Assembly (NCBI GenBank): GCA_002347615.1
Contig: DDYH01000050.1
Coordinates: 12,753-76,752, forward strand
Direction: 5' to 3'
From: Gallionellaceae bacterium UBA2239
GTDB taxonomy: Bacteria; Pseudomonadota; Gammaproteobacteria; Burkholderiales; UBA9220
Length of the DNA stretch: 64,000 nt
How positions within the stretch are numbered: position 1 is the first letter of the stretch; every line of letters begins with the position of its first letter. Below the pieces are notes generated by a model. That model was not told where the DNA came from. It ran no database searches and saw only the letters and a list, made by a program, of their open reading frames with translations. A program made the position numbers and the translations under genes. Of the stretch, positions 5,133-22,852 are shown in pieces.

Positions 5133-6509
5133 CTACCGCTCCCTCCCCGCCTCATGAAACGCCTTCCGCACCGGCGACAGCAGATATTCCAGAATGGTGC
5201 GGTCGGCCAGCTTGATCTCCGCGCTCACCGCCATGCCGGGAGACATGCGGAAGCGCTCGTGGTCCGCCTCCAGTTCCTGGCGCTTCAAGCTCACCACCGA
5301 ACGGTAGTACAGCATGCCTGCGCCTTTGGATGGGTCGGGCGGCGCGGTGTTGCCGTTGGCTTCCCCTTGCCGGTCGCTGGCGTCGGCGCTGACGAAGCTC
5401 ACCGTCCCATCCGCCATGCCATACTTTTGGAATGGGTAGGCGGCGAGCTTGACCTTCACCTCCTGCCCCTCATGGACAAAGCCCACGTCCTCGTTGGACA
5501 GCCACACTTCCGCCTGGAGGGCTTCGTTGGCGGGCACCAGGGTGAGCAGCACGGTGCCGGGGGAGACCACGGTGCCCGGGGTGCGGGTGGCGAGGTCTTT
5601 GACGAAGCCGTCCTGGGTGGCCTTGAGTTCCATCAGTTCGTTGCGATGCTGCTGCTTGGCCCACGCCTGTCTAAGCTTCTCGTACTCGGTCATGGCATCC
5701 ACCCGCTCCTTCTGCAATTGCTGGCGGTAGGAGGAGGTGATCTGGGCAAGCTTGCGCTCCGATTGGGCGATGGTGCTCTTCAGCCCTTCTATGGTGTGGG
5801 TCTGGGAGCGCAGGTCCTGTTCCTTCTCGATGCGGTCGCGCTTTTTCTCCAGCACCATGAGATTGCCGGCGAAGCCCTTGGTGCCGAGCTTCTCGAAGGC
5901 CTGTTCCTGGGCCTGGTAGACCGGCAACACCTGCTTCAGCTTGGACTCGATCTCCCGGGCGGCGGCCAGGTCCTGGCGGGCCTTGTCGAGAACCGCCCGT
6001 TCCTGGGACAGGGCGTCCTCGTAGGCGCGGCGATTGGCCTGGTACTGGCCTTCCACTTCCCGGAACAGGTCGATGGGGTCGTCCCCGGCCCGGACCAGGG
6101 CAATGTCGTCCAGCTCGGCATCGATGCGCCGCAGTTGCAGGGATTTCTGCTTCAGTTCGGCGAACAGGGCACGGGTGTCGGCCTCCGACAGACGGGTGTC
6201 CATGCGCATCAGCACCTGCCCGGCTTTGACGAACTGGTTGTCCTTCACCAGTATCTCCCGCACCATGCCCTGCTCCGAGGGCTGGATGATCTTGAGATAA
6301 GACAGGGGCACCAACTTGCCCTCCGCCACCGCCACCACGTCCACCCGCCCTAAGGTGGCCCACAGGAGCAGGAAGCCCAGCAGCGCCAGCACCGCCTTCA
6401 GCAGCTTCCGAGGAAGCGGATGGGGCGGGCTGTGCTGAAGCTTGAGGAGGCCGGGGGCGAAGTCCAGGGCCTCCACGTCGTGGTGGGTGACGAGCTTTTC
6501 TACATCCAT
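5133..6509 (-). CDS. HlyD-family type I secretion membrane fusion protein
   Basis: The ATG at 6509 is preceded by aggagg. It has one N-terminal TM helix (LLKAVLALLGFLLLWATL), a long coiled-coil region, and a C-terminal ADRTILEYLLSPV motif typical of HlyD proteins. Confidence 0.85.
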   Translation of the reverse strand: MDVEKLVTHHDVEALDFAPGLLKLQHSPPHPLPRKLLKAVLALLGFLLLWATLGRVDVVAVAEGKLVPLSYLKIIQPSEQGMVREILVKDNQFVKAGQVLMRMDTRLSEADTRALFAELKQKSLQLRRIDAELDDIALVRAGDDPIDLFREVEGQYQANRRAYEDALSQERAVLDKARQDLAAAREIESKLKQVLPVYQAQEQAFEKLGTKGFAGNLMVLEKKRDRIEKEQDLRSQTHTIEGLKSTIAQSERKLAQITSSYRQQLQKERVDAMTEYEKLRQAWAKQQHRNELMELKATQDGFVKDLATRTPGTVVSPGTVLLTLVPANEALQAEVWLSNEDVGFVHEGQEVKVKLAAYPFQKYGMADGTVSFVSADASDRQGEANGNTAPPDPSKGAGMLYYRSVVSLKRQELEADHERFRMSPGMAVSAEIKLADRTILEYLLSPVRKAFHEAGRER

Positions 6510-6545
6510 GGAACTGCCTCCTAAAGAAACTACGAGCAGCAGTAG

Positions 6546-6733
6546 GTCGGGCACATGTGCCCGACATCCCGTCAGCAGTGTTGGGCATGTATGCCCAACC
6601 TACATTTACTGCCGTAGCGCAGGCGACCTCGCCTGCATCGGGCCGCAGGCCCGCCTTTGCGAGTTATGCGGCAAGCCGCCCATCCCTGCCAACCCCGCTT
6701 CGGCGGGCAATGCAGGCGAGTCGCCTGCGCTAC
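6546..6733. repeat. Cluster of REP-like palindromes between the HlyD gene and the RTX gene
   Basis: gtcgggcacatgtgcccgac (6546-6565) and gttgggcatgtatgcccaac (6580-6599). A nested hairpin follows, with outer arms gtagcgcaggcga/tcgcctgcgctac (6614-6626 / 6721-6733) and inner arms as at 4972-5023. Confidence 0.75.
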
Positions 6734-6775: not shown

Positions 6776-9700
6776 TCACCATCCCAAGTGGGTGAAACCT
6801 TCACGCAGGCCGGTGAAGGACTGCATGCCCCCTTTGCCGCCAGCATTGGAAGGGATGGAACCATGCCCTTTTTCGGCCCCCTTGCCACCCGAGCCCAACC
6901 CATTCGCAGCCTCGGAGAAGTGGCTATGGCCCGAAGGTGCCCCCAAATCGCCGTCGAAGGCGGCGAAGTGGGCATCCAGACGGGAATGCATCCTTCCCCA
7001 CTGGGCCTGGTAAGAACGGCCGTCTTCGTCGTCGCCCAGGCCGCGAAGCTGCTTGCCGCCTTTGGTGATGTCGTCGAAGTCGCTCAGGCGGACGGTCTGG
7101 TAACGCCCGCTTTGGTCGAACCAGCGGTGGAGCAGGCCGTCAATGCGCTCTTGCACCTTGTCCTTGTCGTTCCGCTTGCCGTAGTGGTCATGGTCCCGAT
7201 CTTCGTGGCGGTCGTGGTGATTATCATGGCCGTGGCCATGACCGGAACCGTGATGTCCCGGCCAGTTACCGGAACCGCCATCATGGCCGCAGTGGTGGCC
7301 GTTGTCTTCGCCGCCCTTACCCTTTTCAAGGGTAAGCCGGAAAACGTCCGAAGCCGATGCCTGGGAGTCATCCGTGGCGGTCACCTGAACGTCGAGAGTG
7401 CCGGAGGCGTTGGCCGGAGCAGTGCCGCTGAAGGTCTGGGTAGCGGCATCGAAAACCAGCCAACTCGGCAGGGCGGAGCCATCCGCCAGGGTGGCGCTGT
7501 AGGCCAGCGCATCGCCCTGATCGACGTCGGTAAAGCTCCCCGCTGGAACCTGCCAGGTGAAGGCCGCTTTGGTCTGGGCAGTCTGGTCAGCGAGGGGCGC
7601 AACCAAGATGGGAGCGTCGTTGACGTTGGCCACCGCGAGGTCGAAGGTGTCAGAAGCGCTGGCACCACTGCCGTCGGTGGCGGTAACGGTCAAACCCAAG
7701 GAGCCGACATCCCCGTTGGCCGGTGTGCCCGTAAGAGTACGGGTAATAGGGTCGAAGGTCAGCCAGTCGGGCAACGGCAGGCCGTCGGCCAGGGTGACGC
7801 CGAACTGGAGCGTATCGCCAAGGTCCACGTCGGCGAAGGCGCTGTCCGGCAGGGCATAGCTGAAAGGCGCGTCTTCAGTCGCCGTCTGGTCGGGAATCGG
7901 TTCCGCAACCAGGGGCGCATCGTTGACGTTGGCGACGCCGAGAGCGAACACCTGGGAGGCGGATGCCCCGGCGAGGTCGGTGGCGGTTACCTTGATATTC
8001 AAGGTGCCCACGTCGCCGTTTGCCGGCATGCCGGCAAAGGTGCGAGTGGCCCCGTCGAAACTGAGCCAAGCCGGCAGGGGATCGCCATTTTCCAGGGTGG
8101 CGGCGTAACTCAGGGCGTCGCCGACGTCCATATCCGCAAAGGCGCTTTCCGGCAAGGTGTAGGCAAAGGCGGCGTCTTCGCTAGCAGTCTGCGAGGCAAG
8201 GGGCTCCACCGCATAGGGGGCGTCGTTGACGTTGAGGACGTCGAGGGCAAACACCTGGGAGGCCGAAGCGCCGGCCGCGTCGATGGCGGTCACCATGAGT
8301 TGCAGGCTACCCACGTCTTCGTTGGCCGGAATCCCGCTCAGTGTGCGAGTGGCGGCATCGAAGGCGAGCCAGGCCGGCAGAGGTGTGCCGTCAGCCAAGG
8401 TAAGGCCGAAACTAAGGCTGTCGCCCTGGTCGATGTCGGCAAAGGCATCCGCCGGCAGGGTGAAGCTGAACAGCGCGTCTTCCGGCGCCGCCTGCTGGCC
8501 CACCGGAACGGCGGCGACCGGGGCGTCGTTGACATTGGCGACGCCGAGGGCAAACGCCGCTACCGTGCTCGCCCCTGCCAAATCGGTGGCCGTGACGGCC
8601 ACGCCGATATTTCCCACGTCGCCGTTGGCGGGGGTGCCGGCGAAGGTCAGCGTAGCCGGATCGAAGGTCAGCCAGGCCGGCAAGGGCGTACCATCGGCCA
8701 AGGCGGCGCTGTAGGAGAGCGTTTCGCCTGCATCAATGTCGGCGAAAGTTCCCGTCGGCACAGTGAAGACAAAGGACAAGTCTTCGGTGGCTGCTTGGTT
8801 GTCGATGGGGGTCACCGTGGCGGGAGCGTCGTTGACGTTGACCACCGTGAGGTCGAACAACTGCGTCGCCGCCATGCCCGCCCCATCGGTGGCAATGACC
8901 TGGACACCCCAAACGCCTACGTCGCCATTCGCCGGCGTGCCGGCGAAGGTACGGTTGACGGCATCGAAGCTGAGCCATGACGGCAGCGGATCACCGTTTT
9001 GGAGGGTGGCCGCAAAGCTAAGCGTATCGCCGGCATCGACGTCGGAAAAGGCGCCGTCGGGCAGCGCGTAGGTGAAAGGCGCATCCTCGGCAGCCGTTTG
9101 TGCGTCAATCGGAATGGCCGCAACAGGGGCATCGTTGACGTTGGCAACGGCCAGGTCGAAGGTGTCGGAAACCGCTTCCCCCGCCGGGTCGATGGCGGTC
9201 ACCGTCACGCTCAGGGTGCCCACGTCGCCGTCGCCCGGCGTGCCGCTGAAGGTGCCGGTGGAGGAGTCAAAAGCCAGCCAGCCGGGCAGCGGCGAGCCAT
9301 CAACAAGCGTGGCGGTGTAGCTCAGCACGTCGCCGGCGTCCGGGTCGATGAAGGTGCCGGCAGGAATCTGGTAGAGGAAGGCCGCATCCTCGTCCGCCGA
9401 CACATCCGGCAAGGCGCCCACCAGTTCCGGCGCACGGTTCAGGAAGTCGGTGATAGACACCTCGCTACCATCGGCAAAGCCCACCGTCGCAGTCACCAAT
9501 GAACCGGTAGCGCCCGTGGGGTCGAATCCTTCCAGGACCACGGCGTCGCCGGTGCTGCCGACTTGAAGGGTGAGCTTGCCGCTTTCCAGAACCGGCGTAA
9601 GGTCGGCCAGGGTAATCCCAGCGCCGAACTGGATGCGATTGCCGCCGGAGGCGTCAGCAATGTCGCGGATAATGTCGATGCCGTCACCCAGGTTGAAGAG

Positions 9701-16499: not shown

Positions 16500-18829
16500 G
16501 CCGCCCTCCTCCATGCCATGTCGTTACTTGCGCCACCCACCATCGGCATCGGGTTGCGGTTTTCAATCGGGCTGAAGTAGCGGTCGAAGGGGTTGCCGTA
16601 ATCGGCGGCGCTCCAGTCGAAGCCGGTGGCGGTGTAGTCGTCGTCGCCGTCGATGACGTCGTCGCCCGCTCCGCCCGCGAGGATGTCTTGCCCCTCCCCG
16701 CCGAAGAGGACGTCGTTGCTTGTTCCGCCCACGACGATGTCGTCGCCGGCGCCGCCGTTGAGCCAGTCGCCCTTCTGGCCGGTGCCGCCTTGGAGGTTGC
16801 CTTGGGTGATGGCGGTGGAGAGGTCAATTTCCGTGTCGGCGTAGAGGCGGTCGTTGCCTGCGCCGCCGTAGAGGATGTCGCTTCCTTCACCCCCTTCAAG
16901 AAGGTCGTTGCCCCCTCGGGTGGCGAGGAGCATGTCGTTGCCGCCCAGCCCTTGGACAAGGTCGTTGCCTTCGCCGTCGTAGAGCGTATCGTCACGGCCG
17001 GCTTCCTCGGTGCCGTCGGTGATGACGTTGTCCAGGTCGTCGGTGCGGTAGTCCTGGTTGGGCGGGTCGAAGTCGAGGGGGTGGAGGTCGCCGATAATGG
17101 TGCGGTCTACGGGAGCAGCATCCTCCGTGGCCAGATACAGGCCAAGGTCACCATCCTCGAAATTCTCGATGACGACGCGGGTTCCATCCGCCAAGGTCAA
17201 CGTGAGGTTGGCGTCTTTGGCAACGCTGATCGAGCGATCAGAAAGAAAAACATAATTTCCGGAAGCGTCCTTTTCGATGACACCGGAGATGACACGGCCT
17301 GTTTTGTCTTGGATGCGCCCCTGGCCGTCAGCGTCTTTTATCGTGTCGTAGCCCTCGATGATGTAGACGTCACTGCCAGCACCGCCGTCCAGAACATCGT
17401 CCCCTGCGCCGCCAACAAGCAGATCATTACCGCCGCCGCTGGATAAGGAATCGTTTCCCGATCCTCCAAGCATCAGGTCCTTCTTGTCGTCCTCCGTCGC
17501 CGTGGCAATCAAATTTCCTTCCGTAGCAAGCGAATAGCGGTCTACATTGCCATGGAAGGATATGGATAGTTCGTCATGGGCCTTGCGCAGTTCGCTATCC
17601 AGTTGCGCGAAGCTCTTTGCCACCCATTGGTCGTCTTCCGATTTGTGCTCGATCTGGACGCCGCCGCTCAGTGGCTTGAAGGCCGGGTCGAACGTGCCGG
17701 ATGCGATTCCATTCACGTGGTCCAACCCTTGCGCGTAGTGGAGATTGATGTCGAGGTCCACCAGCGCGGCTTTCAATGCGTCTGTGGCAAGCTCACCCTG
17801 AATGCGCCCGATGTCGCCTGCGAAGGCTTCCAGGGGGTTTTCGCCAGCCGTCTGCAGTTGGACCATGAGGTTGAGGAAGTTGATCTCAGCTTTACTAGGC
17901 GCTGTATTCCGCTCGGAGGTGAATATCTTTTGCAACACTTCCGGGTTGTTCTGGCTGGCGGCCAGGAATTCCGGCGATTGGAGAAACGCAGCCAGCAAGG
18001 GCATGTAGTGCAGGTCAACCGGGTCGCCGTTCAGGAGTGAATAGCCCCAGTCGTTGCCGGTGGTCGCTTTGGCATCGATTGCCTGTTCGTTGCCGGCGAT
18101 GTTGGTAACGTTGGCCGCGAGGAGGAGAATTGCGGGGTTGGAGAACAGGCCGAGCGCTACGGCGGCAATGCGCCCGGCGGGGGTTTGCGCCAGGGAGAGG
18201 ATTTCATCCTTGACGTAGATGGCGCTGACGTTTCCTTCGCGGGCGACGCGGGTGGGGCTGGGGAGGAGGGTGCCGGTCAGAGGGTCAACAGCGATATAGC
18301 CGGCAAAGGCGTCCGGCAAGGAGTAGCCTGCCGCTACAAGGGCCGCCTTGAGGCCGTTGACCACAATGGAGGAATCTGCCGATTTCTCGAAGGGCGCTTC
18401 GTCGAATACCTGTGCCGGCCGGTCAAAGTACACCGCCATCAGGGAAGCCAGGCCCCCACCCAGCGAGTGGCCGGTGAAGGTGATGGTCGCGCCGGGGTTG
18501 GCTTGGGCCACGTCCAGATAAAACTTGGCGGCATCGAGTACCTGAGGGGCAAGGGTCAGTCCGCTGCCTGCCGTGATGTTACCCGCCAGCCAATCTTTGG
18601 CTTTATCGAGCGATCCACCCTCGAAGGTGGTGCCGGTGTAGGCGATGGCAATCTCGCCGGTTTGAGTGTTTTGGTAGGCACGGGCGGTGAAGCCAGTGGC
18701 ATCGTTAATTCGATCGTCGAGTTTTACCCAGCCATCGGGGATTGGAATAGTGTTCTTATCACTGGTCACATCACGCTTTACCGCATAAGAATTGGCCGCC
18801 AGCAATGCATATTCAACATTAGTCGTCAT
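16496..18829 (-). CDS. Truncated RTX protein (777 aa) with an N-terminal alpha/beta-hydrolase lipase-like domain; orphan head cassette
   Basis: Nucleophile elbow FTGHSLGGGLASL in a class-3-lipase-like context. RTX nonapeptides are present (GGSGNDSLSSGGGNDLLVGGAGDDVLDGGAGSD). The protein then runs through the shared segment and ends ...NPMPMVGGASNDMAWRRAA-stop, at the point where the full-length paralogue continues VGGADILYGG... Confidence 0.85.
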   Translation of the reverse strand: MTTNVEYALLAANSYAVKRDVTSDKNTIPIPDGWVKLDDRINDATGFTARAYQNTQTGEIAIAYTGTTFEGGSLDKAKDWLAGNITAGSGLTLAPQVLDAAKFYLDVAQANPGATITFTGHSLGGGLASLMAVYFDRPAQVFDEAPFEKSADSSIVVNGLKAALVAAGYSLPDAFAGYIAVDPLTGTLLPSPTRVAREGNVSAIYVKDEILSLAQTPAGRIAAVALGLFSNPAILLLAANVTNIAGNEQAIDAKATTGNDWGYSLLNGDPVDLHYMPLLAAFLQSPEFLAASQNNPEVLQKIFTSERNTAPSKAEINFLNLMVQLQTAGENPLEAFAGDIGRIQGELATDALKAALVDLDINLHYAQGLDHVNGIASGTFDPAFKPLSGGVQIEHKSEDDQWVAKSFAQLDSELRKAHDELSISFHGNVDRYSLATEGNLIATATEDDKKDLMLGGSGNDSLSSGGGNDLLVGGAGDDVLDGGAGSDVYIIEGYDTIKDADGQGRIQDKTGRVISGVIEKDASGNYVFLSDRSISVAKDANLTLTLADGTRVVIENFEDGDLGLYLATEDAAPVDRTIIGDLHPLDFDPPNQDYRTDDLDNVITDGTEEAGRDDTLYDGEGNDLVQGLGGNDMLLATRGGNDLLEGGEGSDILYGGAGNDRLYADTEIDLSTAITQGNLQGGTGQKGDWLNGGAGDDIVVGGTSNDVLFGGEGQDILAGGAGDDVIDGDDDYTATGFDWSAADYGNPFDRYFSPIENRNPMPMVGGASNDMAWRRAA
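16530..17107 (-). repeat. Shared RTX segment, copy B (3' end of the lipase stub)
   Basis: See copy A. The identical out-of-frame ORF prefixes in the six-frame track (13914 and 16653) confirm the 2739-nt offset. Confidence 0.9.
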
Positions 18830-18859: not shown

Positions 18860-19582
18860 TCAGTGGCAGTCGTTGCGGGATGCGGGCAAAAAAACTTCCG
18901 CGGTATTTGTCGTTTGCACGTGGACGCTTCTGCATTCCTTACATGCGTCGCGGGCATATGTCGGGGGTTTGTTTCGCCCGCGGTAAGTTACCCATTCATT
19001 CAGGCCCGTTATTTCGGGTTTTTTTCGCATAAGCCAGTAGATATTCGTATCACGCGCCTCCTTTTGCGCGATAGTTACCAACCCGCGCACATCCCGCGAG
19101 CCATCATCGTCATATTCAGTGTTATTCAGCATGTTGTATCGCAGCCCCTTGGGATAGATTTCCGGGCCAATCTTTTTCCAGGTTCCATCTTCCCAGACAA
19201 AATATAGAGCGGAAGTGTCGGGATAGCCGTGCAACATGCATTGCTCACAACTACTGATTGACACCTTGACGTAAGCCTTACCATCGACGATGTCAAAAGT
19301 CTCGGGGAAATACCCAGGCTTCGATTTCCAGTGGATGCCCATGGGGGCATAGCAGAACTGCCAGTATTGGCGCGGTCCCCGATGAGAGAGCGGAAACCCG
19401 CTGGCGCCGAGTTCATCGTGTCGTTTGACGACGATGATCCGCCCGTCATGCAGCTTTACCTCTTCACTCCAGTCGAGCACCGTTGGGGCGCATTCGCCAT
19501 GGAGCGGTAGCATCATGACAATGCAAACCGTTAAAGCGCGCAACATTCGAGATACCAGTACGGTCCGTAAGTTAGTTTTCAT
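18860..19582 (-). CDS. Secreted/periplasmic Cys-rich hypothetical protein; candidate immunity protein (B)
   Basis: The N-terminus MKTNLRTVLVSRMLRALTVCIVMMLPLHG is signal-peptide-like, and there are 8 or more Cys. The ATG overlaps the stop of the stub remnant (ATGA). The gene is AT-richer than its flanks and unrelated in sequence to protein A. Confidence 0.7.
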   Translation of the reverse strand: MKTNLRTVLVSRMLRALTVCIVMMLPLHGECAPTVLDWSEEVKLHDGRIIVVKRHDELGASGFPLSHRGPRQYWQFCYAPMGIHWKSKPGYFPETFDIVDGKAYVKVSISSCEQCMLHGYPDTSALYFVWEDGTWKKIGPEIYPKGLRYNMLNNTEYDDDGSRDVRGLVTIAQKEARDTNIYWLMRKKPEITGLNEWVTYRGRNKPPTYARDACKECRSVHVQTTNTAEVFLPASRNDCH

Positions 19583-19683
19583 GCTGCCCTCCTATAATGA
19601 TCGTCATTGCTTGCACCACCCATCATCGGCATGGGATTGCGGTTTTCAATCGGGCTGAAGTAGCGGTCGAAGGGGTTGCCGTA
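19579..19683 (-). pseudogene. Remnant of a third RTX stub 3' end (junction only)
   Basis: Reads YGNPFDRYFSPIENRNPMPMMGGASNDDHYRRAA-stop. It is near-identical at nucleotide level to 16496-16600 and, in part, to 13801-13862. Homology ends at 19683. Confidence 0.8.
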
Positions 19684-19788
19684 GGGAGGTGCAGTTGGAT
19701 GCGCTGGCCCCCTTGGCCGGCTTCGTTAGGGTTGTCAGATTTCTGACCGCCGTTGACATAGGGAATTAATTTCCCTAGCATTCGGAAT

Positions 19789-20019
19789 ATGCCGCGTGTA
19801 AAGACTTTCTCAAGTTTCGCCCTCTGGTTGTATGCCAAGGAACGGCATCGCTTACCCCATGTCCATATCGAGGCGCCAGGCTTGCGCGCCACGCTGGCTA
19901 TCGAGACAGGCAAGGTGATGGTGGGTTTTGCCCCGGATGACCTGGTGCGCGAGGCACGGGCATACATTGCGGAAAATCGCGCCGCGCTGCTCGAAAAATG
20001 GAAGGAGTTGAACCCGTGA
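19789..20019 (+). CDS. DUF4160-family small protein
   Basis: 76 aa. The segment WLYAKERHRLPHVHIEAPG is the motif typical of DUF4160 (HxxPHxH). Confidence 0.65.
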   Translation: MPRVKTFSSFALWLYAKERHRLPHVHIEAPGLRATLAIETGKVMVGFAPDDLVREARAYIAENRAALLEKWKELNP

Positions 20020-20462
20020 ACAAGCCTGTTCTGATTACCGCCGTCGCCGCCGTTGAGTCTGGCGTCCTTGAGATTACCTTTGACGGCAAGAAGTCGTTTC
20101 GCGTCGATTTGCGGCGTGATATTGCCGACTACCCTGTCCTTGCTCCGCTTTCCGATCCCGCTTTGTTCGGCACTGTCCATGCGGATGAATTCGGCCATGC
20201 CGTGCGCTGGAACGATGACATTGATCTGGGCGCCGACGGGCTCTGGATGGAGGCCCATGTCCAGGCCGGGCTGGCGGTACGCTTTGAGGAGTTCGATGCC
20301 TGGCGCAAGCGAAACGGCCTGTCCCTGACGGATATTGCCAACATTCTTGGAGTCAGCCGCCGCACGGCGACAAATTATGCCGGGGGCTTTCATTTGATCC
20401 CGAAAATCGTCGGCTTGGCTATGGTCGGGTGGGAAACTCTCAAGGCCCGCAAGGCTGCCTAA
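19998..20462 (+). CDS. DUF2442-like protein with a C-terminal helix-turn-helix
   Basis: ITAVAAVESGVLEITFDGKKSFRVDL is DUF2442-like. The C-terminal LSLTDIANILGVSRRTATNYAGG is HTH-like. The real start may be the GTG at 20015, which overlaps the upstream stop (GTGA). Confidence 0.6.
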   Translation: MEGVEPVNKPVLITAVAAVESGVLEITFDGKKSFRVDLRRDIADYPVLAPLSDPALFGTVHADEFGHAVRWNDDIDLGADGLWMEAHVQAGLAVRFEEFDAWRKRNGLSLTDIANILGVSRRTATNYAGGFHLIPKIVGLAMVGWETLKARKAA

Positions 20463-20497
20463 GGCCACTGCGGTTCGGTTTTCCTTCCTGCTCGCCG

Positions 20498-22852
20498 TCA
20501 TTTTTCTTCCTCCTCCGGCGCATCGCTTTTCGTCTCCCCCTTCCCCCCCAACATCACCACCTCATCCACCTTCAGCCCCTTGGGCAGCTGATGGGTGATG
20601 AACAGCATCCCCACCTTGCCCCGCAGCTTGTTCACGGTCTGTGCGAAGTGTTCGGCGGTGTGCTGGTCCAGGTTGCTGGTGGCTTCGTCGAAGATGAGGA
20701 TTTTGGGTTGCTTGAGCAGGGCCCGGGCGATGGCGAGGCGCTGCTTCTGTCCGCCGGAGAGGCCGGAGCCGTGTTCGCCGATGGGGGTCTGGTAGCCCTG
20801 GGGGAGCTTGTCGATGACGTCATGGATTTCGGCCATGGAGCAGGCTTCGACGATCTGCGGGAAGCTGGCGTGGGGGTTGGCCATGAGGAGGTTGTCGTAG
20901 AGGGTGCCGGAGAAGAGGTAGGTTTCCTGGGGCACGACGCCGAAGTAGCTGCGCAGCTCGTTGGCGGCCAGGTGGCGGATGTCCCGGCCGTCGAGGAGGA
21001 TGCGGCCCTCGTTGGGGGTGTAGAAGCCTTGCAGCAGTTTGGCGAGGGTGCTCTTGCCGGAGCCTGAGGGGCCCATCATCACCACGCAGTGGCCGGGGAG
21101 GAGGTCGAGGCTTAAGTTGCGGTAGAGCCAGGGTAGGTCGTCGCCGTAGCGGAAGGAGATGCCTTCGATCTCCACCTTGCCGGCGGCGCCGGGGGCGCGG
21201 CTGGGCAGCAGGGTGTAGGGCTCGGTGGGGGCGGACATGACGTCCCCCAGGCGCTTGATGGAGATGGAGGCTTGCTGGAATTCCTGCCACAGGCCAACCA
21301 GGCGCATGACGGGGCCGGAGAGACGGCCGGAGAACATCTGGAAGGCCACCAGCATGCCGATGGTGAAGTCGGTATCGTGCATGACGATCCAGGCGCCGAC
21401 GCACAGGATGGCGAGGGTCTGTATCTGGTCCAGGGCGCTGGCGGCGGTGTTGTAGGTGTTGGACAGCTGCCGGGTGTTGAAGCCGGCGGCCAGGGCTTCG
21501 GCCAGGTAGTCGCCGTATTTGGCCTTGAGCTGGGGTTCCATCTGGAGGGATTTGACGGTCTCCATGCCTGCCACGTATTCGGTGACGAAGGCCTGGTTGC
21601 GGGCGCCCACCAGGAATTGCTTGTTGAGGCGCTCCCGGAACAGGGGCGTGACAATAAAGCTTAAGCTTGCGATGAGGACGAGAATGGCGAGGGAGATGAG
21701 AGTGAGCTTCCAGCTGTAGTAGAACATCACCGCCAGGAAGATGACCAGGAAGGGCAGGTCGAGGAGCAGGGAGACGGCGGTGCCGGTGATGAATTCGCGG
21801 ATGGTTTCCACGCCCTGGAGCCGGGCGACTACCGTGCCGGTGGGGCGGCGCTCGAAGTAGCGGGGCGGCAGGTGGACCAGGTGCTCGAAGACCTTGGTGC
21901 CGAGGACGGCGTCGATGCGGTTGCCGGTGTGGAGCACCAGGTATTGGCGCACCCAGGTCATGACGGCGGTGAACACCATGAAGGCCAGCAGGGCCAGGGC
22001 GATGACCACCAGGGTGCTTTGGGTGTGGTGGACGACGACCTTGTCGATGATTACCTGGGTGAACAGCGGCGTGGCAAGGCCCACCAGCTGGATGGCGAGG
22101 GAGGCGGCGAGGACTTCCTTCCACAGCTTCTTGTGCTTGAGGAGTTCGGGAACGAACCATTGGAAGCCGAAGGCGGCTTCGGGCTGGCCGTCTTCGTCGG
22201 GGAGGGGTTGGCCTTCCTTGGCGAAGAGGAGGGCCCAGGGTTCGAAGGCGGTTTCGAATTCTTCGGCGGTGGCGGTGCGGGGTTGTTCTTCGCCGGGGAG
22301 GAAGTAGAGGAGCTGGTCGCCTTCGGCTTTGAGGATGAGGGCGGGGCGGAGGGGTGGGGTAGGTGGTGCTGCGGTAGTTTCGTCGGATGGAGCATCGTCC
22401 GCATTTCCCTCTCCCCCTGCCCCTCCCCCGCTTGCGGGGGAGGGGAGCGAGAAGCTGTCCTCTTCTTCCACACTCCCCTCTCCCTCCGGGAGAGGGGCTG
22501 GGGGTGAGGAACAATCCTCCGGCTTGAGAAAGCCCAAGCACGGCAACGGAAAACGTTGCAAATCCCCAGCCGCAGCAGCGCGAATCCCCGAGCGCAGCTT
22601 CAGCCCCTGGGCGGCATGCTGGAGGCTGGCGAGGTGGTAAGGGGGCGGGAACTGCTGGAGCAGCAGGTTGGGGTCGAAGGGCTGGCGATGGAGCTGGCAC
22701 AGGCTGCCGAGACACCAGAGGAATGCATCCCGTTCCAAGAGCGCCGATAAATCAGCGTTCGGCCCCGGCTCTGGGACTTCACGATAGGACTCGATGTGGC
22801 GCAGGAGGGGCCGCGCCATATCAAATGCGTGTTTGTAGGCCGCGCGCAGCAC
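20498..22852 (-). CDS. Type I secretion ABC transporter (permease/ATPase) with an N-terminal C39-peptidase-like domain
   Basis: Walker A GPSGSGKST, signature LSGGQKQRLAIARAL, Walker B ILIFDEATS, and six TM helices. The N-terminal ~200 aa resemble the HlyB-type C39-like domain. The start is uncertain (M1 at 22852 or M12 at 22819). Confidence 0.9.
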   Translation of the reverse strand: MLRAAYKHAFDMARPLLRHIESYREVPEPGPNADLSALLERDAFLWCLGSLCQLHRQPFDPNLLLQQFPPPYHLASLQHAAQGLKLRSGIRAAAAGDLQRFPLPCLGFLKPEDCSSPPAPLPEGEGSVEEEDSFSLPSPASGGGAGGEGNADDAPSDETTAAPPTPPLRPALILKAEGDQLLYFLPGEEQPRTATAEEFETAFEPWALLFAKEGQPLPDEDGQPEAAFGFQWFVPELLKHKKLWKEVLAASLAIQLVGLATPLFTQVIIDKVVVHHTQSTLVVIALALLAFMVFTAVMTWVRQYLVLHTGNRIDAVLGTKVFEHLVHLPPRYFERRPTGTVVARLQGVETIREFITGTAVSLLLDLPFLVIFLAVMFYYSWKLTLISLAILVLIASLSFIVTPLFRERLNKQFLVGARNQAFVTEYVAGMETVKSLQMEPQLKAKYGDYLAEALAAGFNTRQLSNTYNTAASALDQIQTLAILCVGAWIVMHDTDFTIGMLVAFQMFSGRLSGPVMRLVGLWQEFQQASISIKRLGDVMSAPTEPYTLLPSRAPGAAGKVEIEGISFRYGDDLPWLYRNLSLDLLPGHCVVMMGPSGSGKSTLAKLLQGFYTPNEGRILLDGRDIRHLAANELRSYFGVVPQETYLFSGTLYDNLLMANPHASFPQIVEACSMAEIHDVIDKLPQGYQTPIGEHGSGLSGGQKQRLAIARALLKQPKILIFDEATSNLDQHTAEHFAQTVNKLRGKVGMLFITHQLPKGLKVDEVVMLGGKGETKSDAPEEEEK
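22420..22497. repeat. Two REP-like palindromes lying in frame inside the ABC transporter gene
   Basis: cccctcccccg-cttg-cgggggagggg (22420-22445) and cccctctccc-tcc-gggagagggg (22475-22497). They encode ...PLPEGEGSVEEEDSFSLPSPASGGGAGGEG... Confidence 0.8.

Follow-up and report, generated by a model that had tools for sequence, protein, structure and literature searches.

The window, i.e., the whole 64,000-nt stretch of DNA that was analysed, contains a type I secretion (T1SS) locus whose genes are read on the minus strand in the order ABC transporter, remnant, ORF240 with a lipase head-RTX stub, ORF241 with a lysozyme head-RTX-body protein, and HlyD (Table 1). The window derives from JGI metagenome 3300002821, and within the species-representative collection its best match was a Sulfuricellaceae MAG with 67% identity. 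The stub is genetically linked to T1SS genes of the same strand: the HlyB-type ABC gene matches NCBIfam TIGR01846 (type_I_sec_HlyB, E=1.7e-179), and the HlyD gene matches TIGR01843 (type_I_hlyD, E=3.6e-96), passing the cut-off of that family. As read from its sequence, the ABC transporter carries an N-terminal C39-like domain in which the catalytic Cys is seemingly absent. A search for the origin of the spacer at 19685-20497 gave no Pfam match for its ORF, no homologues of an ORF within it and no resemblance to the loci fetched. The remnant runs into ORF240 by an ATGA overlap; neither this third remnant nor the flanking periplasmic immunity-like genes had been mentioned in the first-pass annotation. 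The 2999-aa protein ends in ..FTGLREGFTHLGW, its last 130 aa match other proteins at their extreme C-terminus, and its C-terminal motif class is common to other long relatives.

Table 1. Features of the T1SS locus in window coordinates, listed in the direction of reading
Feature	Coordinates	Strand	Remarks
T1SS ABC transporter, HlyB type	20498..22852	-	Pfam ABC_membrane + ABC_tran; first gene of the locus
Spacer, 813 nt	19685..20497	.	Separates the ABC gene from the first remnant
Earlier-stub remnant	19579..19684	-	Last ~72 nt of the shared block + tail ..GGASNDDHYRRAA-stop
ORF240, candidate immunity	18860..19582	-	Signal peptide, Cys-rich, beta-rich
Stub head, lipase/phospholipase, aa 1-340	17810..18829	-	Pfam, model, triad alignment
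Helical extension of the head, first RTX repeats and linker, aa 341-574	17108..17809	-	Stub-specific
Shared RTX recombination block, upstream copy	16530..17107	-	94.5% identity to 13791-14368
11-codon tail ASNDMAWRRAA + TGA	16496..16531	-	Resembles the ssrA tag
ORF241, exported, candidate immunity for GH24-lysozyme head	15789..16499	-	Start overlaps the stop of the stub
Full-length RTX protein, 2999 aa	6776..15775	-	GH24 lysozyme-like head, RTX blocks, 7 He_PIG repeats
HlyD-family T1SS membrane-fusion protein	5133..6554	-	Pfam HlyD_3; last gene of the locus

The stub ORF (16496..18829, minus strand) encodes 777 aa from an ATG start, and the span 17108-18829 is the portion found in this ORF alone. 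Pfam recognizes Lipase_3 (E=7e-7, passing the cut-off) and five stretches of HemolysinCabind/RTX (E=4e-26); Ca-binding GGxGxD nonapeptide repeats are present, with a beta-roll in the AF2 model. The head was modelled by AF2 with a pLDDT of 91.4, and Foldseek searches with this model retrieved fungal class-3 lipases and feruloyl esterases and the T6SS lipase effector 9cys_A (TMt 0.48). In a profile search against PDB sequences, the closest solved relative was the Enterobacter cloacae T6SS lipase effector Tle (E=5.9e-15), bearing out the lead to Tle families given by the first-pass annotation. Ser341, Glu393 and His448 of Tle align with S122 (18464-18466), E209 (18203-18205) and H274 (18008-18010) of the stub; the triad spacings of 52 and 107 in the head match those of the Tle chain, and S122 lies in the GxSxG elbow GHSLG (stub aa 118-130, FTGHSLGGGLASL). 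Since the Tle triad maps onto these residues, the triad of the stub is complete, as the first reading had required, although it is Ser-Glu-His and not the expected Ser-Asp-His. Among 99 head homologues, S122 and H274 are invariant and E209 is kept in at least 90%, and the lipase domain shows a dN/dS of 0.08, indicating strong purifying selection. Homologues of the lipase head include Xanthomonas lipase-family proteins.

Judged from these alignments, the head of the stub is homologous to the E. cloacae phospholipase Tle, a Tle6-group protein (PDB 7UBZ/9CYS) whose N-terminal EYALxAxxVY helix and GHSLGGGLAS elbow align with the head along with the triad. The periplasm is the site of action of Tle, whose activity is that of a phospholipase A1/A2 (PMC11470151). 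In contrast to Tle, which is delivered by a T6SS and encoded alongside an ankyrin-repeat Tli partner, the head described here is fused to RTX repeats, lies in a T1SS locus and is preceded by the gene of an unrelated beta-rich, Cys-rich exported protein; around the stub, neither a T6SS delivery context (VgrG/PAAR/Hcp neighbourhood) nor an ankyrin-repeat Tli partner was found, the neighbours being ABC, HlyD and RTX genes.

The stub shares with the 2999-aa gene a block of 578 nt (16530-17107 and 13791-14368), which is in frame on both sides, stub codons 575-767 corresponding to codons 470-662 of the 2999-aa gene. Its stop lies some 10-11 codons past the block, with tail codons 767-777 overlapping the last partial codon of the latter. 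The description given at first pass, a lipase-core RTX stub that ends near the shared block and lacks ~2300 aa of its paralogue, is thus confirmed: residues 663-2999 (2337 aa), C-terminus included, are missing. The C-terminal secretion region that follows the repeats is likewise absent, and the stub has no ..GLREG..L.. end of the kind seen in the paralogue and long relatives; T1SS signals being degenerate, a cryptic one might nevertheless permit export of the stub. Upstream, the RBS AAGGGAG is placed 9 nt before the ATG and is identical to that of the full-length gene, no terminator-like site was found on the strand of the stub, and the 2.3-kb ORF has stayed intact both here and in relatives (dN/dS 0.08-0.13). 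Because of the good RBS and the position inside the operon, the stub is probably translated.

At first pass, the stub was described as stopping right after the shared block. Its end is no arbitrary break, being formed by an 11-residue tail which is conserved throughout the family and which coincides in part with the signals for starting the next gene; the truncation is no accident. The tail reads ASNDMAWRRAA here and A-A-N-D-x-x-W-R-(aliphatic)-A-A-stop in its family form; within it, TGGAGGAGG is the Shine-Dalgarno of ORF241, and the terminal GCATGA provides an ATGA stop/start overlap with that gene. Two occurrences of the tail pattern are present in the window against 0.00 expected from shuffles and, with a third, truncated copy of the block end followed by the same tail at 19579-19684, the stub-block-tail arrangement exceeds chance. 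Residues 758-761 and 763-777 have a pLDDT below 50 in the AF2 model of the stub, the tail being predicted as disordered.

The tail was found on 46 distinct stubs of 344-1089 aa, with N at position -9 in 28, D at -8 in 25, W at -5 in 28, R at -4 in 38 and A at -2 in 35, position -3 being mostly R, M, V, I or L. At the DNA level, 16/17 distinct genome-locus tails read xGG-AGR-NNN-NNN-GCA-TGA, most commonly TGG AGG nnn GCn GCA TGA, which corresponds to a GGAG(G) Shine-Dalgarno, a spacer, and an ATG overlapping the TGA stop. Scanning metagenomes with the tail DNA pattern recovered at least 120 loci, and in 105 distinct metagenome tails Ala occupies -11 in 51 and -10 in 59, both positions left free by the search pattern, and residue -3 is aliphatic; information resides at codon positions 1 and 2, with none at position 3. 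Codons for N, D and Ala(-2) differ synonymously, the reading frame and 11-codon length are invariable, and AAND together with the penultimate Ala is conserved in Betaproteobacteria, Nitrospira and Thermodesulfobacteriota alike, while the third codon positions are free to vary. An RNA element at the junction was also considered and rejected, as folding of 16455-16575 (minus strand) gave z=+0.77, not above shuffles, and the metagenome tails display no conservation beyond the 11 codons.

In composition, the tail resembles the ssrA tag AANDENYALAA, with which it shares its length of 11 residues, A-A-N-D (the adaptor-binding part) at positions 1-4, an aromatic residue at 7, an aliphatic one at 9 and a terminal Ala-Ala-COOH at 10-11, features that include SspB and ClpX determinants of the tag. 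It differs in being encoded by the gene and not added by tmRNA, and in the Arg at position 8, which is forced by the overlapping Shine-Dalgarno; the copy described here (ASND..RRAA) further departs from ssrA in that Ser replaces Ala at position 2 and Arg replaces Leu at -3. No tmRNA or tRNA genes were found within the window or in any fetched locus. The strongest C-terminal ClpXP degrons follow the experimental consensus [L/F/Y/W]-[L/A/R]-L-A-A (PMC10862746), with which the W-R-x-A-A of the tail agrees at positions 1, 2, 4 and 5; the present copy departs from it at -3. This agreement is in part imposed by the DNA, since the Shine-Dalgarno TGGAGG encodes W-R, and the ATGA overlap requires an A as third base of the last codon.

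Related loci hold arrays of units in which a periplasmic immunity-like gene precedes a toxin head-RTX stub. In the window and in L008, the array is flanked by the T1SS ABC gene and by the full-length RTX gene with HlyD, and the plan is common to L002, L003, L008, L024, L026, L031, L033 and L041. The closest relative, L001, starts with the ABC gene, an ORF240-like gene with a lipase stub, an ORF241-like gene with a lysozyme stub, and a gene for 285 aa with a second lysozyme stub, and continues with an ORF241-like gene and an IS-broken lysozyme head, an RTX fragment, a membrane protein gene and one more head. Fifteen tail-bearing stubs had room downstream, and a script confirmed an immunity-like gene plus another head gene in 12; by inspection, what then follows in the other three is the IS-disrupted head (L001), a 2351-aa open RTX gene (L010), or a head with frameshifted RTX fragments (L033).

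The same heads also occur on full-length proteins. The lysozyme head and block of the 2999-aa gene are 86% identical to a 672-aa stub of L001 that ends in ..GGASNDMAWRRAA, lipase heads are carried by 2000-3300-aa proteins in at least 17 genomes, and a Dechloromonas genome holds one head type in both states, stub and full-length. These comparisons suggest that cassettes move between orphan and expressed positions. The idea that the stub is a protein of normal size, with all head homologues below 1000 aa, was refuted by the many long lipase-headed proteins found in the genome scan; the first listing of head homologues was apparently biased to short sequences. As for the silent orphan awaiting recombination that had been proposed at first pass, the orphan part stands, considering that the heads are found both as stubs and as full-length N-termini and that one homologous crossover could fuse the stub to the body, while silence is at odds with the RBS, the lack of a terminator-like site on the strand and the dN/dS of 0.08.

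Head types are linked to characteristic upstream genes. Members of the ORF240 family lie directly upstream of 27 of 54 lipase heads, mostly those of the closest relatives and alike for stub and full-length proteins, and an ORF241-family gene immediately precedes the GH24 head in 3/3 cases. Both proteins bear export signals, ORF241 having a signal peptide and a mosaic structure. The 113 homologues of ORF240 are all unannotated, its dN/dS is 0.10, and its beta-rich AF2 model (pLDDT 91) retrieved no PDB fold at E<0.001. For the same reason, and with no Pfam or NCBIfam match, identification of ORF240 as a Tli ankyrin protein, an FrpD/Smlt3025-type protein or a lysozyme-inhibitor fold was rejected. 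Conserved linkage makes ORF240 a candidate cognate immunity protein of the lipase head, and ORF241 a candidate for the GH24-lysozyme head of the 2999-aa gene.

With a probability of roughly 60%, we interpret the 777-aa ORF as a displaced N-terminal toxin cassette kept in reserve by a polymorphic RTX toxin locus whose toxin is exported by the T1SS, the product of the displaced cassette being tagged for proteolysis. Because T1SS signals are C-terminal, the variable toxin would be N-terminal and spare heads would gather on the 5' side, each retaining an RTX block homologous to the expressed gene. Recombination of 16530-17107 with 13791-14368 by a single crossover would remove 2739 bp, comprising the tail, ORF241 and the lysozyme head, and would yield an in-frame lipase-headed protein of ~3104 aa, with the candidate immunity gene ORF240 remaining upstream. 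Until then, translation of the stub would bring ribosomes to the overlapping start of ORF241, and the product, having no C-terminal export region and ending instead in an ssrA-tag mimic, may be directed by its tail to ClpXP/SspB-type proteolysis, which would dispose of an unexportable and potentially membrane-damaging lipase. A dN/dS of 0.08 in the lipase head would not be expected of a product destined only for destruction, and on this reading it would have to be explained by frequent cycling through the expressed position or by horizontal exchange.

The overlap of coding and initiation signals also admits a plainer reading, which we consider unlikely: the stub would be a non-functional leftover of cassette insertion, and its tail the Shine-Dalgarno and ATG of the next immunity gene read in frame by chance, with AAND inherited as part of a widely exchanged junction module having no role as a protein signal. 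The W-R of nearly all tails examined is indeed TGGAGG at a fixed distance to the ATG, the tail variant goes with the downstream signal peptide and not with the upstream head, and tails still follow destroyed stubs, being retained behind decayed remnants of 20-60 aa. Moreover, conservation of Ala(-11/-10) behind these remnants is, in small samples, no weaker than behind long stubs, a comparison that lends no support to selection for a degron function in the latter. However, A-A-N-D and the penultimate Ala are unnecessary for an RBS and yet are conserved while third codon positions are free, the frame and 11-codon length are constant, and the 2.3-kb ORF is kept intact under the constraint described above, here and in relatives.

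That same constraint, together with the intact ORF and good RBS, would also suit a complete short RTX lipase toxin exported independently, the tail serving as a new C-terminal T1SS signal for the adjacent ABC/HlyD and the array constituting several active toxin-immunity pairs. The encoded T1SS, RTX repeats adjoining the C-terminus in the fashion of T1SS substrates, the occurrence of this ending on many 500-1000-aa relatives and its conservation at the protein level agree with such a role. It becomes quite improbable when the distribution of the tail is considered: it is carried by 0/28 long relatives, many of which end in one of two recurring C-terminal types of their own (one of them, ..GLREG..L.., matching the 2999-aa gene), and never by the last toxin gene of an array. 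Characterized T1SS signals are ~50 residues long, whereas the tail comprises just 11 residues straight after the RTX repeats; it persists behind decayed remnants, also terminates non-RTX stubs, and in every case has a stop that overlaps the following ATG, a feature linking it to the junction and not to a protein family. A role inside the producer, as a cytoplasmic lipase/esterase or as a regulator or partner of the secretion machinery or immunity proteins, would fit the complete triad, the purifying selection and the absent export end, but is very improbable given that the exported ORF240 partner could not act on the stub in the cytoplasm, that the same head elsewhere is the N-terminus of giant secreted-type proteins, that RTX domains fold only at high calcium, and that phospholipase activity in the cytoplasm would be harmful.

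The displaced reserve cassette that we favor has counterparts among known systems, as the CdiA-CT/CdiI and Rhs orphans follow the same orphan toxin/immunity cassette design. In Neisseria, tpsC and mafB-CT cassettes are truncated copies with adjacent immunity genes and homology for toxin switching (PMC5472700). As in these systems, one expressed giant gene is accompanied here by an array of truncated copies, each with a different toxin domain, an adjacent immunity gene (a candidate in our case) and homology to the main gene for recombination. Unlike them, the toxin is N-terminal, the spares are located on the 5' side of the expressed gene, the candidate immunity gene stands before its toxin, and switching would go by deletion; further, known orphans are 3' fragments lacking initiation signals, whereas the stub is 3'-truncated and has its own ATG and RBS and a conserved tail.

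Among RTX proteins, FrpC/FrpD of Neisseria meningitidis is similar to the locus described here in combining an RTX T1SS substrate, variable in an N-terminal domain of ~350 aa, with an exported (lipo)protein that is encoded upstream and binds it, and the X-Tfe/X-Tfi pairs of the X-T4SS have toxin domains homologous to the N-termini of RTX proteins. For neither system have stub arrays or tails been described, and the head here is a lipase; ORF240, whose predicted fold has no significant PDB match, shows no likeness to FrpD or to another known immunity fold. By overall layout, the top Foldseek matches were the family I.3 lipases (Pseudomonas sp. MIS38 lipase, Serratia LipA), T1SS substrates in which an N-terminal lipase precedes an RTX beta-roll, albeit with low TM-scores (0.15-0.19); in contrast to the stub, they belong to another lipase family, possess a real C-terminal secretion end and are accompanied by neither an immunity gene nor a cassette array. 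Our search of the literature, which covered T1SS polymorphic toxins headed at the N-terminus, arrays of stubs and ssrA-like encoded tails, returned only speculation on FrpC/FrpD and a degron screen, and the literature searched does not describe stub arrays with an ssrA-like tail.

As a general principle, which we put forward tentatively and at slightly less than even odds, polymorphic toxins exported C-terminus first may widely keep their spare heads as translated 5' stubs, the RBS and start at the junction doubling as an ssrA mimic, so that silencing would be achieved by proteolysis and not at transcription or translation. If our interpretation is true, swappable antibacterial toxins would be carried by type I-secreted RTX proteins as well as by the CDI, Rhs, Maf, T6SS and T7SS systems, in a mirrored geometry (toxin at the N-terminus, immunity gene upstream, reserve cassettes on the 5' side) which follows from the C-terminal secretion signal. 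To our knowledge, this would also be the first gene junction found to encode an ssrA-tag mimic that disposes of a displaced product while driving translation of the next gene. A function would also be provided for many unannotated "Ca2+-binding RTX toxin-like" proteins of 500-1000 aa, and for their small neighbours, in environmental Betaproteobacteria, Nitrospira and Desulfobulbia, and the tail DNA pattern would constitute a handle for finding such arrays along with new toxin and immunity families.

The lipase-headed stub, the big RTX gene and the two exported candidate immunity genes, ORF240 and ORF241, lie between the two genes of a type I secretion system (T1SS; ABC and HlyD), and no terminator-like site was found between the locus genes on their strand. 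A 578-nt block of RTX sequence in the stub (16530-17107) is 94.5% identical to positions 13791-14368 of the 2999-aa gene, and the two copies share their codon phase (stub codons 575-767, big-gene codons 470-662). The stub stops 10 codons past the block, its last 11 codons (the tail) overlapping the block's last partial codon; therefore, the paralogue's last 2337 residues are absent, which bears out the first-pass annotation that the stub ends right after the shared block and lacks the remaining ~2300 aa. The remnant is a third, truncated block copy, comprising the last ~72 nt and the same kind of ending. The stub as an artefact or dying pseudogene was rejected, and the feature is real. We conclude that the stub is a polymorphic-toxin reserve cassette belonging to a 5' array of toxin heads, a reading of the locus to which we assign a probability of about 0.85.

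Features of the locus in their order on the minus strand, followed by transposase sites in related loci
Feature	Position	Strand	Remarks
HlyB-type ABC transporter	22852-20498	-	first gene of locus
Spacer between ABC stop codon and remnant tail	19685-20497		813 nt, GC 0.58
Remnant	19579-19684	-	ends ..GGASNDDHYRRAA-stop
ORF240	19582-18860	-	signal peptide at start
Stub	16496-18829	-	777 aa; Lipase_3 match around FTGHSLGGGLASL (aa 118-130); five RTX stretches
ORF241	16499-15789	-	signal peptide at start
RTX protein, 2999 aa	6776-15775	-	GH24 lysozyme-like head, RTX blocks, seven He_PIG repeats
HlyD-family adaptor	6554-5133	-	last gene of locus
Y1 transposase sites	L001 19224-19919; L008 3578-4945; L040 4302-5036; L100, L168, L178		in or beside arrays

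The ribosome-binding site AAGGGAG, located 8-9 nt before the ATG, is identical for the stub and the full-length gene, and the stub has normal translation signals. Within the spacer, neither an ORF with homologues nor similarity to any fetched locus was found; at the equivalent place L001, a metagenome contig and the closest relative, carries a GerE-type regulator and a 183-aa membrane-protein gene. The ABC gene harbors a Pro/Gly/Glu/Ala-rich low-complexity insert between its C39-like and membrane domains (22346-22519), which the L001 gene, 93% identical elsewhere, lacks. The big protein displays a GH24 lysozyme-like head (E24/E25...D36...T42-IGIG), He_PIG repeats of 303 nt each (7422-9385), and a His-rich stretch (GHHCGHDGG...HGHGHDNHHDRHEDRDHDH) ahead of a rare C-terminal domain.

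The stub was modeled (pLDDT 91.4) as an alpha/beta-hydrolase head, a helical extension and a beta-roll, with low confidence only in the last ~20 residues. In Foldseek searches the overall layout matched RTX-bearing family I.3 lipases, and the head matched fungal class-3 lipases and the Enterobacter cloacae T6SS lipase effector Tle (9cys_A), whose sequence was also matched by the head profile (E=5.9e-15). Residues S122, E209 and H274 align with the Tle triad Ser341/Glu393/His448 (PMC11470151); among 99 head homologues, S122 and H274 are invariant and E209 is at least 90% conserved. Thus, the earlier lead to Tle-family effectors was right, and the triad is complete, its acid being Glu (Ser-Glu-His) rather than Asp. 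The lipase domain shows a dN/dS of 0.08 and has therefore been kept as a working enzyme, a value which fits a reserve often re-used or exchanged, and also an active short toxin. Furthermore, dS reaches ~2.2 in the head, compared with 0.39 for the block and 0.42 for the ABC gene, indicating that heads are older alleles moved between backgrounds and that the block has been homogenised.

The stub-type ending occurs in none of 28 long relatives, many of which carry one of two recurring C-terminal types; one of these, ..GLREGLxxLxx, matches the big protein's ..FTGLREGFTHLGW, and the stub has neither the big gene's C-terminal end nor these types. For the 130 C-terminal residues of the big protein, only five informative matches turned up among 1.8 billion representatives, always at the extreme C-terminus, a placement that fits a C-terminal export region.

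The truncation of the stub is not accidental, since related loci carry arrays of stubs. In L001, the same ABC gene is followed first by an ORF240 homologue with an 823-aa lipase stub. Next come an ORF241 homologue with a stub of 672 aa whose GH24 head is the same as in the window's full-length gene, a 285-aa gene with the second of the lysozyme-type stubs, and another ORF241 homologue with a GH24 head that an IS200-like transposase interrupts. An RTX fragment, a gene for a membrane protein and one more head complete the series. In Dechloromonas sp. ZY10 (L002), two lipoprotein genes each precede a lipase head: the first head belongs to an 859-aa stub, and the second is joined via a frameshift to an RTX body of 1717 aa. 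This locus appears to be decaying, given the frameshifted full-length toxin gene, an ABC fragment, and no T1SS genes found within 10 kb; the fragment is a 191-aa N-terminal piece of a C39-like/ABC gene left upstream of the array (8239-8814). In a scan of species-representative genomes, at least 17 had lipase heads of the stub's family on 2000-3300-aa proteins, often with stubs upstream. Among the 15 stubs with enough downstream sequence, a scripted check identified an immunity-like gene and another head gene downstream of 12; by inspection, what follows the other three is the IS-disrupted head in L001, an open RTX gene of 2351 aa in L010 and, in L033, a head whose RTX fragments are frameshifted. 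IS200/RAYT-like Y1 tyrosine transposase genes recur in or beside cassette arrays of unrelated contigs, one of them splitting a lysozyme head in L001.

An ORF240-family gene lies directly upstream of 27 of 54 lipase heads, mostly in the closest relatives and in stubs and full-length genes alike, and an ORF241-family gene precedes the GH24 head in 3/3 cases; therefore, the unit is an exported partner followed by its head, and the partner of the lipase, as read from sequence, is ORF240, not ORF241. The 113 homologues of ORF240 are unannotated, and its confident, beta-rich and Cys-rich model had no match among solved structures; from linkage and location, we infer that it is the immunity protein of the lipase head. 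ORF241 is a mosaic when compared with L001 (12454-13200, 15214-16068, 18270-19016): its signal peptide (MMGAIFKVGLLFAVFLGQAAWADQP) matches that of the different, 285-aa gene, and its mature part matches the 249-aa genes. Tail variants (ASNDMAWRRAA versus DDMMNKEWRIAA) move together with the signal peptide downstream of them, which places one recombination breakpoint at the signal-peptide/mature junction. In five loci (L125, L135, L136, L195, L198), genes starting at the tail ATGA encode a signal peptide and then AASFDC(G/S/A)K..., which we take to resemble DUF1311/LprI-type lysozyme-inhibitor proteins; in at least three of them (L125, L195, L198) they stand ahead of lysozyme-like heads.

The tail recurs in 46 distinct proteins of 344-1089 aa, retrieved from head homologues and genome loci and selected for A at -1, with N(-9) in 28, D(-8) in 25, W(-5) in 28, R(-4) in 38 and A(-2) in 35. 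The consensus is A-A-N-D-x-x-W-R-(aliphatic)-A-A-stop, the stub reading ASNDMAWRRAA. In DNA, 16 of 17 distinct genome-locus tails read xGG-AGR-NNN-NNN-GCA-TGA, most commonly TGG AGG nnn GCn GCA TGA, the sole exception (L010) ending GCA TAA with no overlap. The TGGAGG is a Shine-Dalgarno sequence, with the next gene's ATG ~7 nt on and overlapping the TGA, as in the GC-ATG-A overlaps at both stub endings of the window (remnant to ORF240, stub to ORF241); translational coupling thus explains W-R and the A closing the last codon, and does not account for the rest of the tail. A metagenome scan with AAYGAY-N6-TGGAGG-N3-GCNGCATGA matched at least 120 loci, against only a few chance matches by a rough estimate assuming several hundred billion bases; the window holds two matches versus 0.00 expected. 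Among the matches listed (105 distinct tails), Ala fills the two pattern-free positions before N-D in 51 and 59 tails and is written with all four of its codons. Residue -3 is chiefly I, V or M, information resides in codon positions 1 and 2 with none in 3, and no conservation was found outside the 11 codons. Synonymous codons are likewise used freely for N, D and the penultimate Ala, which together with conservation at codon positions 1 and 2 is the mark of selection acting at the peptide level. The genes downstream mostly encode exported proteins (N-terminal hydrophobic stretch in 66/80, lipobox-like motif in 24/80), a further long head gene follows in 37/54 cases, and the heads are diverse, including several GxSxG hydrolase types, lysozyme-like domains and unknown types. 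In four metagenome loci (L088, L121, L122, L127) the same tail ends stubs without RTX repeats, for instance DxDxDG-type repeat proteins sharing ..SGRVRDLREAA with the next gene; therefore, the junction element is not confined to RTX toxins.

The tail shares its length and key residues with the E. coli ssrA tag AANDENYALAA, in which AAND-NY binds SspB and LAA-COOH binds ClpX. The experimental consensus of the strongest C-terminal ClpXP degrons is [L/F/Y/W]-[L/A/R]-L-A-A, with Ala-Ala ending 91% of the top 100 tags (PMC10862746), and the tail's last five residues fit it at positions 1, 2, 4 and 5. Conversely, W-R and the last base are forced by the gene overlap, and the stub's copy departs from the ssrA-like consensus by Ser at position 2 and Arg at -3; Ala is retained as often behind decayed stubs as behind long ones. 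We give even odds to the tail acting as a degron.

In the proposed mechanism, the full-length protein would be exported by ABC/HlyD and its head would attack competitors, with ORF241 and ORF240 protecting the producer's periplasm. A single crossover between block copies would remove 2739 bp and leave ORF240 in place, the product being a lipase-headed protein of ~3104 aa. The GH24 head with its block is full-length in the window and a tail-ended stub in L001 (86% identity), so such state changes have occurred. Meanwhile, translation of the stub would spare the genes downstream of it (immunity, toxin and HlyD) from polar effects and couple ribosomes to ORF241, and the tail may route the product to ClpXP-type proteolysis, which would make sense for an unexportable phospholipase whose immunity protein resides in another compartment.

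The array follows the same logic as the orphan cassettes of CDI, Rhs and Maf systems, in mirrored form: the toxin is N-terminal, the 5' spares keep their start signals, the candidate immunity gene is upstream, and switching would proceed by deletion. The closest published proposal concerns Neisseria: the RTX protein FrpC, whose N-terminal domain varies, may form a T1SS effector-immunity pair with FrpD, a lipoprotein encoded upstream, and X-T4SS effectors are homologous to RTX-protein N-termini (PMC6759196; PMC5472700); a 2012 polymorphic-toxin survey mentioned RTX toxins only as host-directed. Stub arrays or an encoded ssrA-like junction tail were not found described in the incompletely covered literature, which is absence of evidence only. 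If its degron function is confirmed, the dual-use ssrA-like junction would be new in kind.
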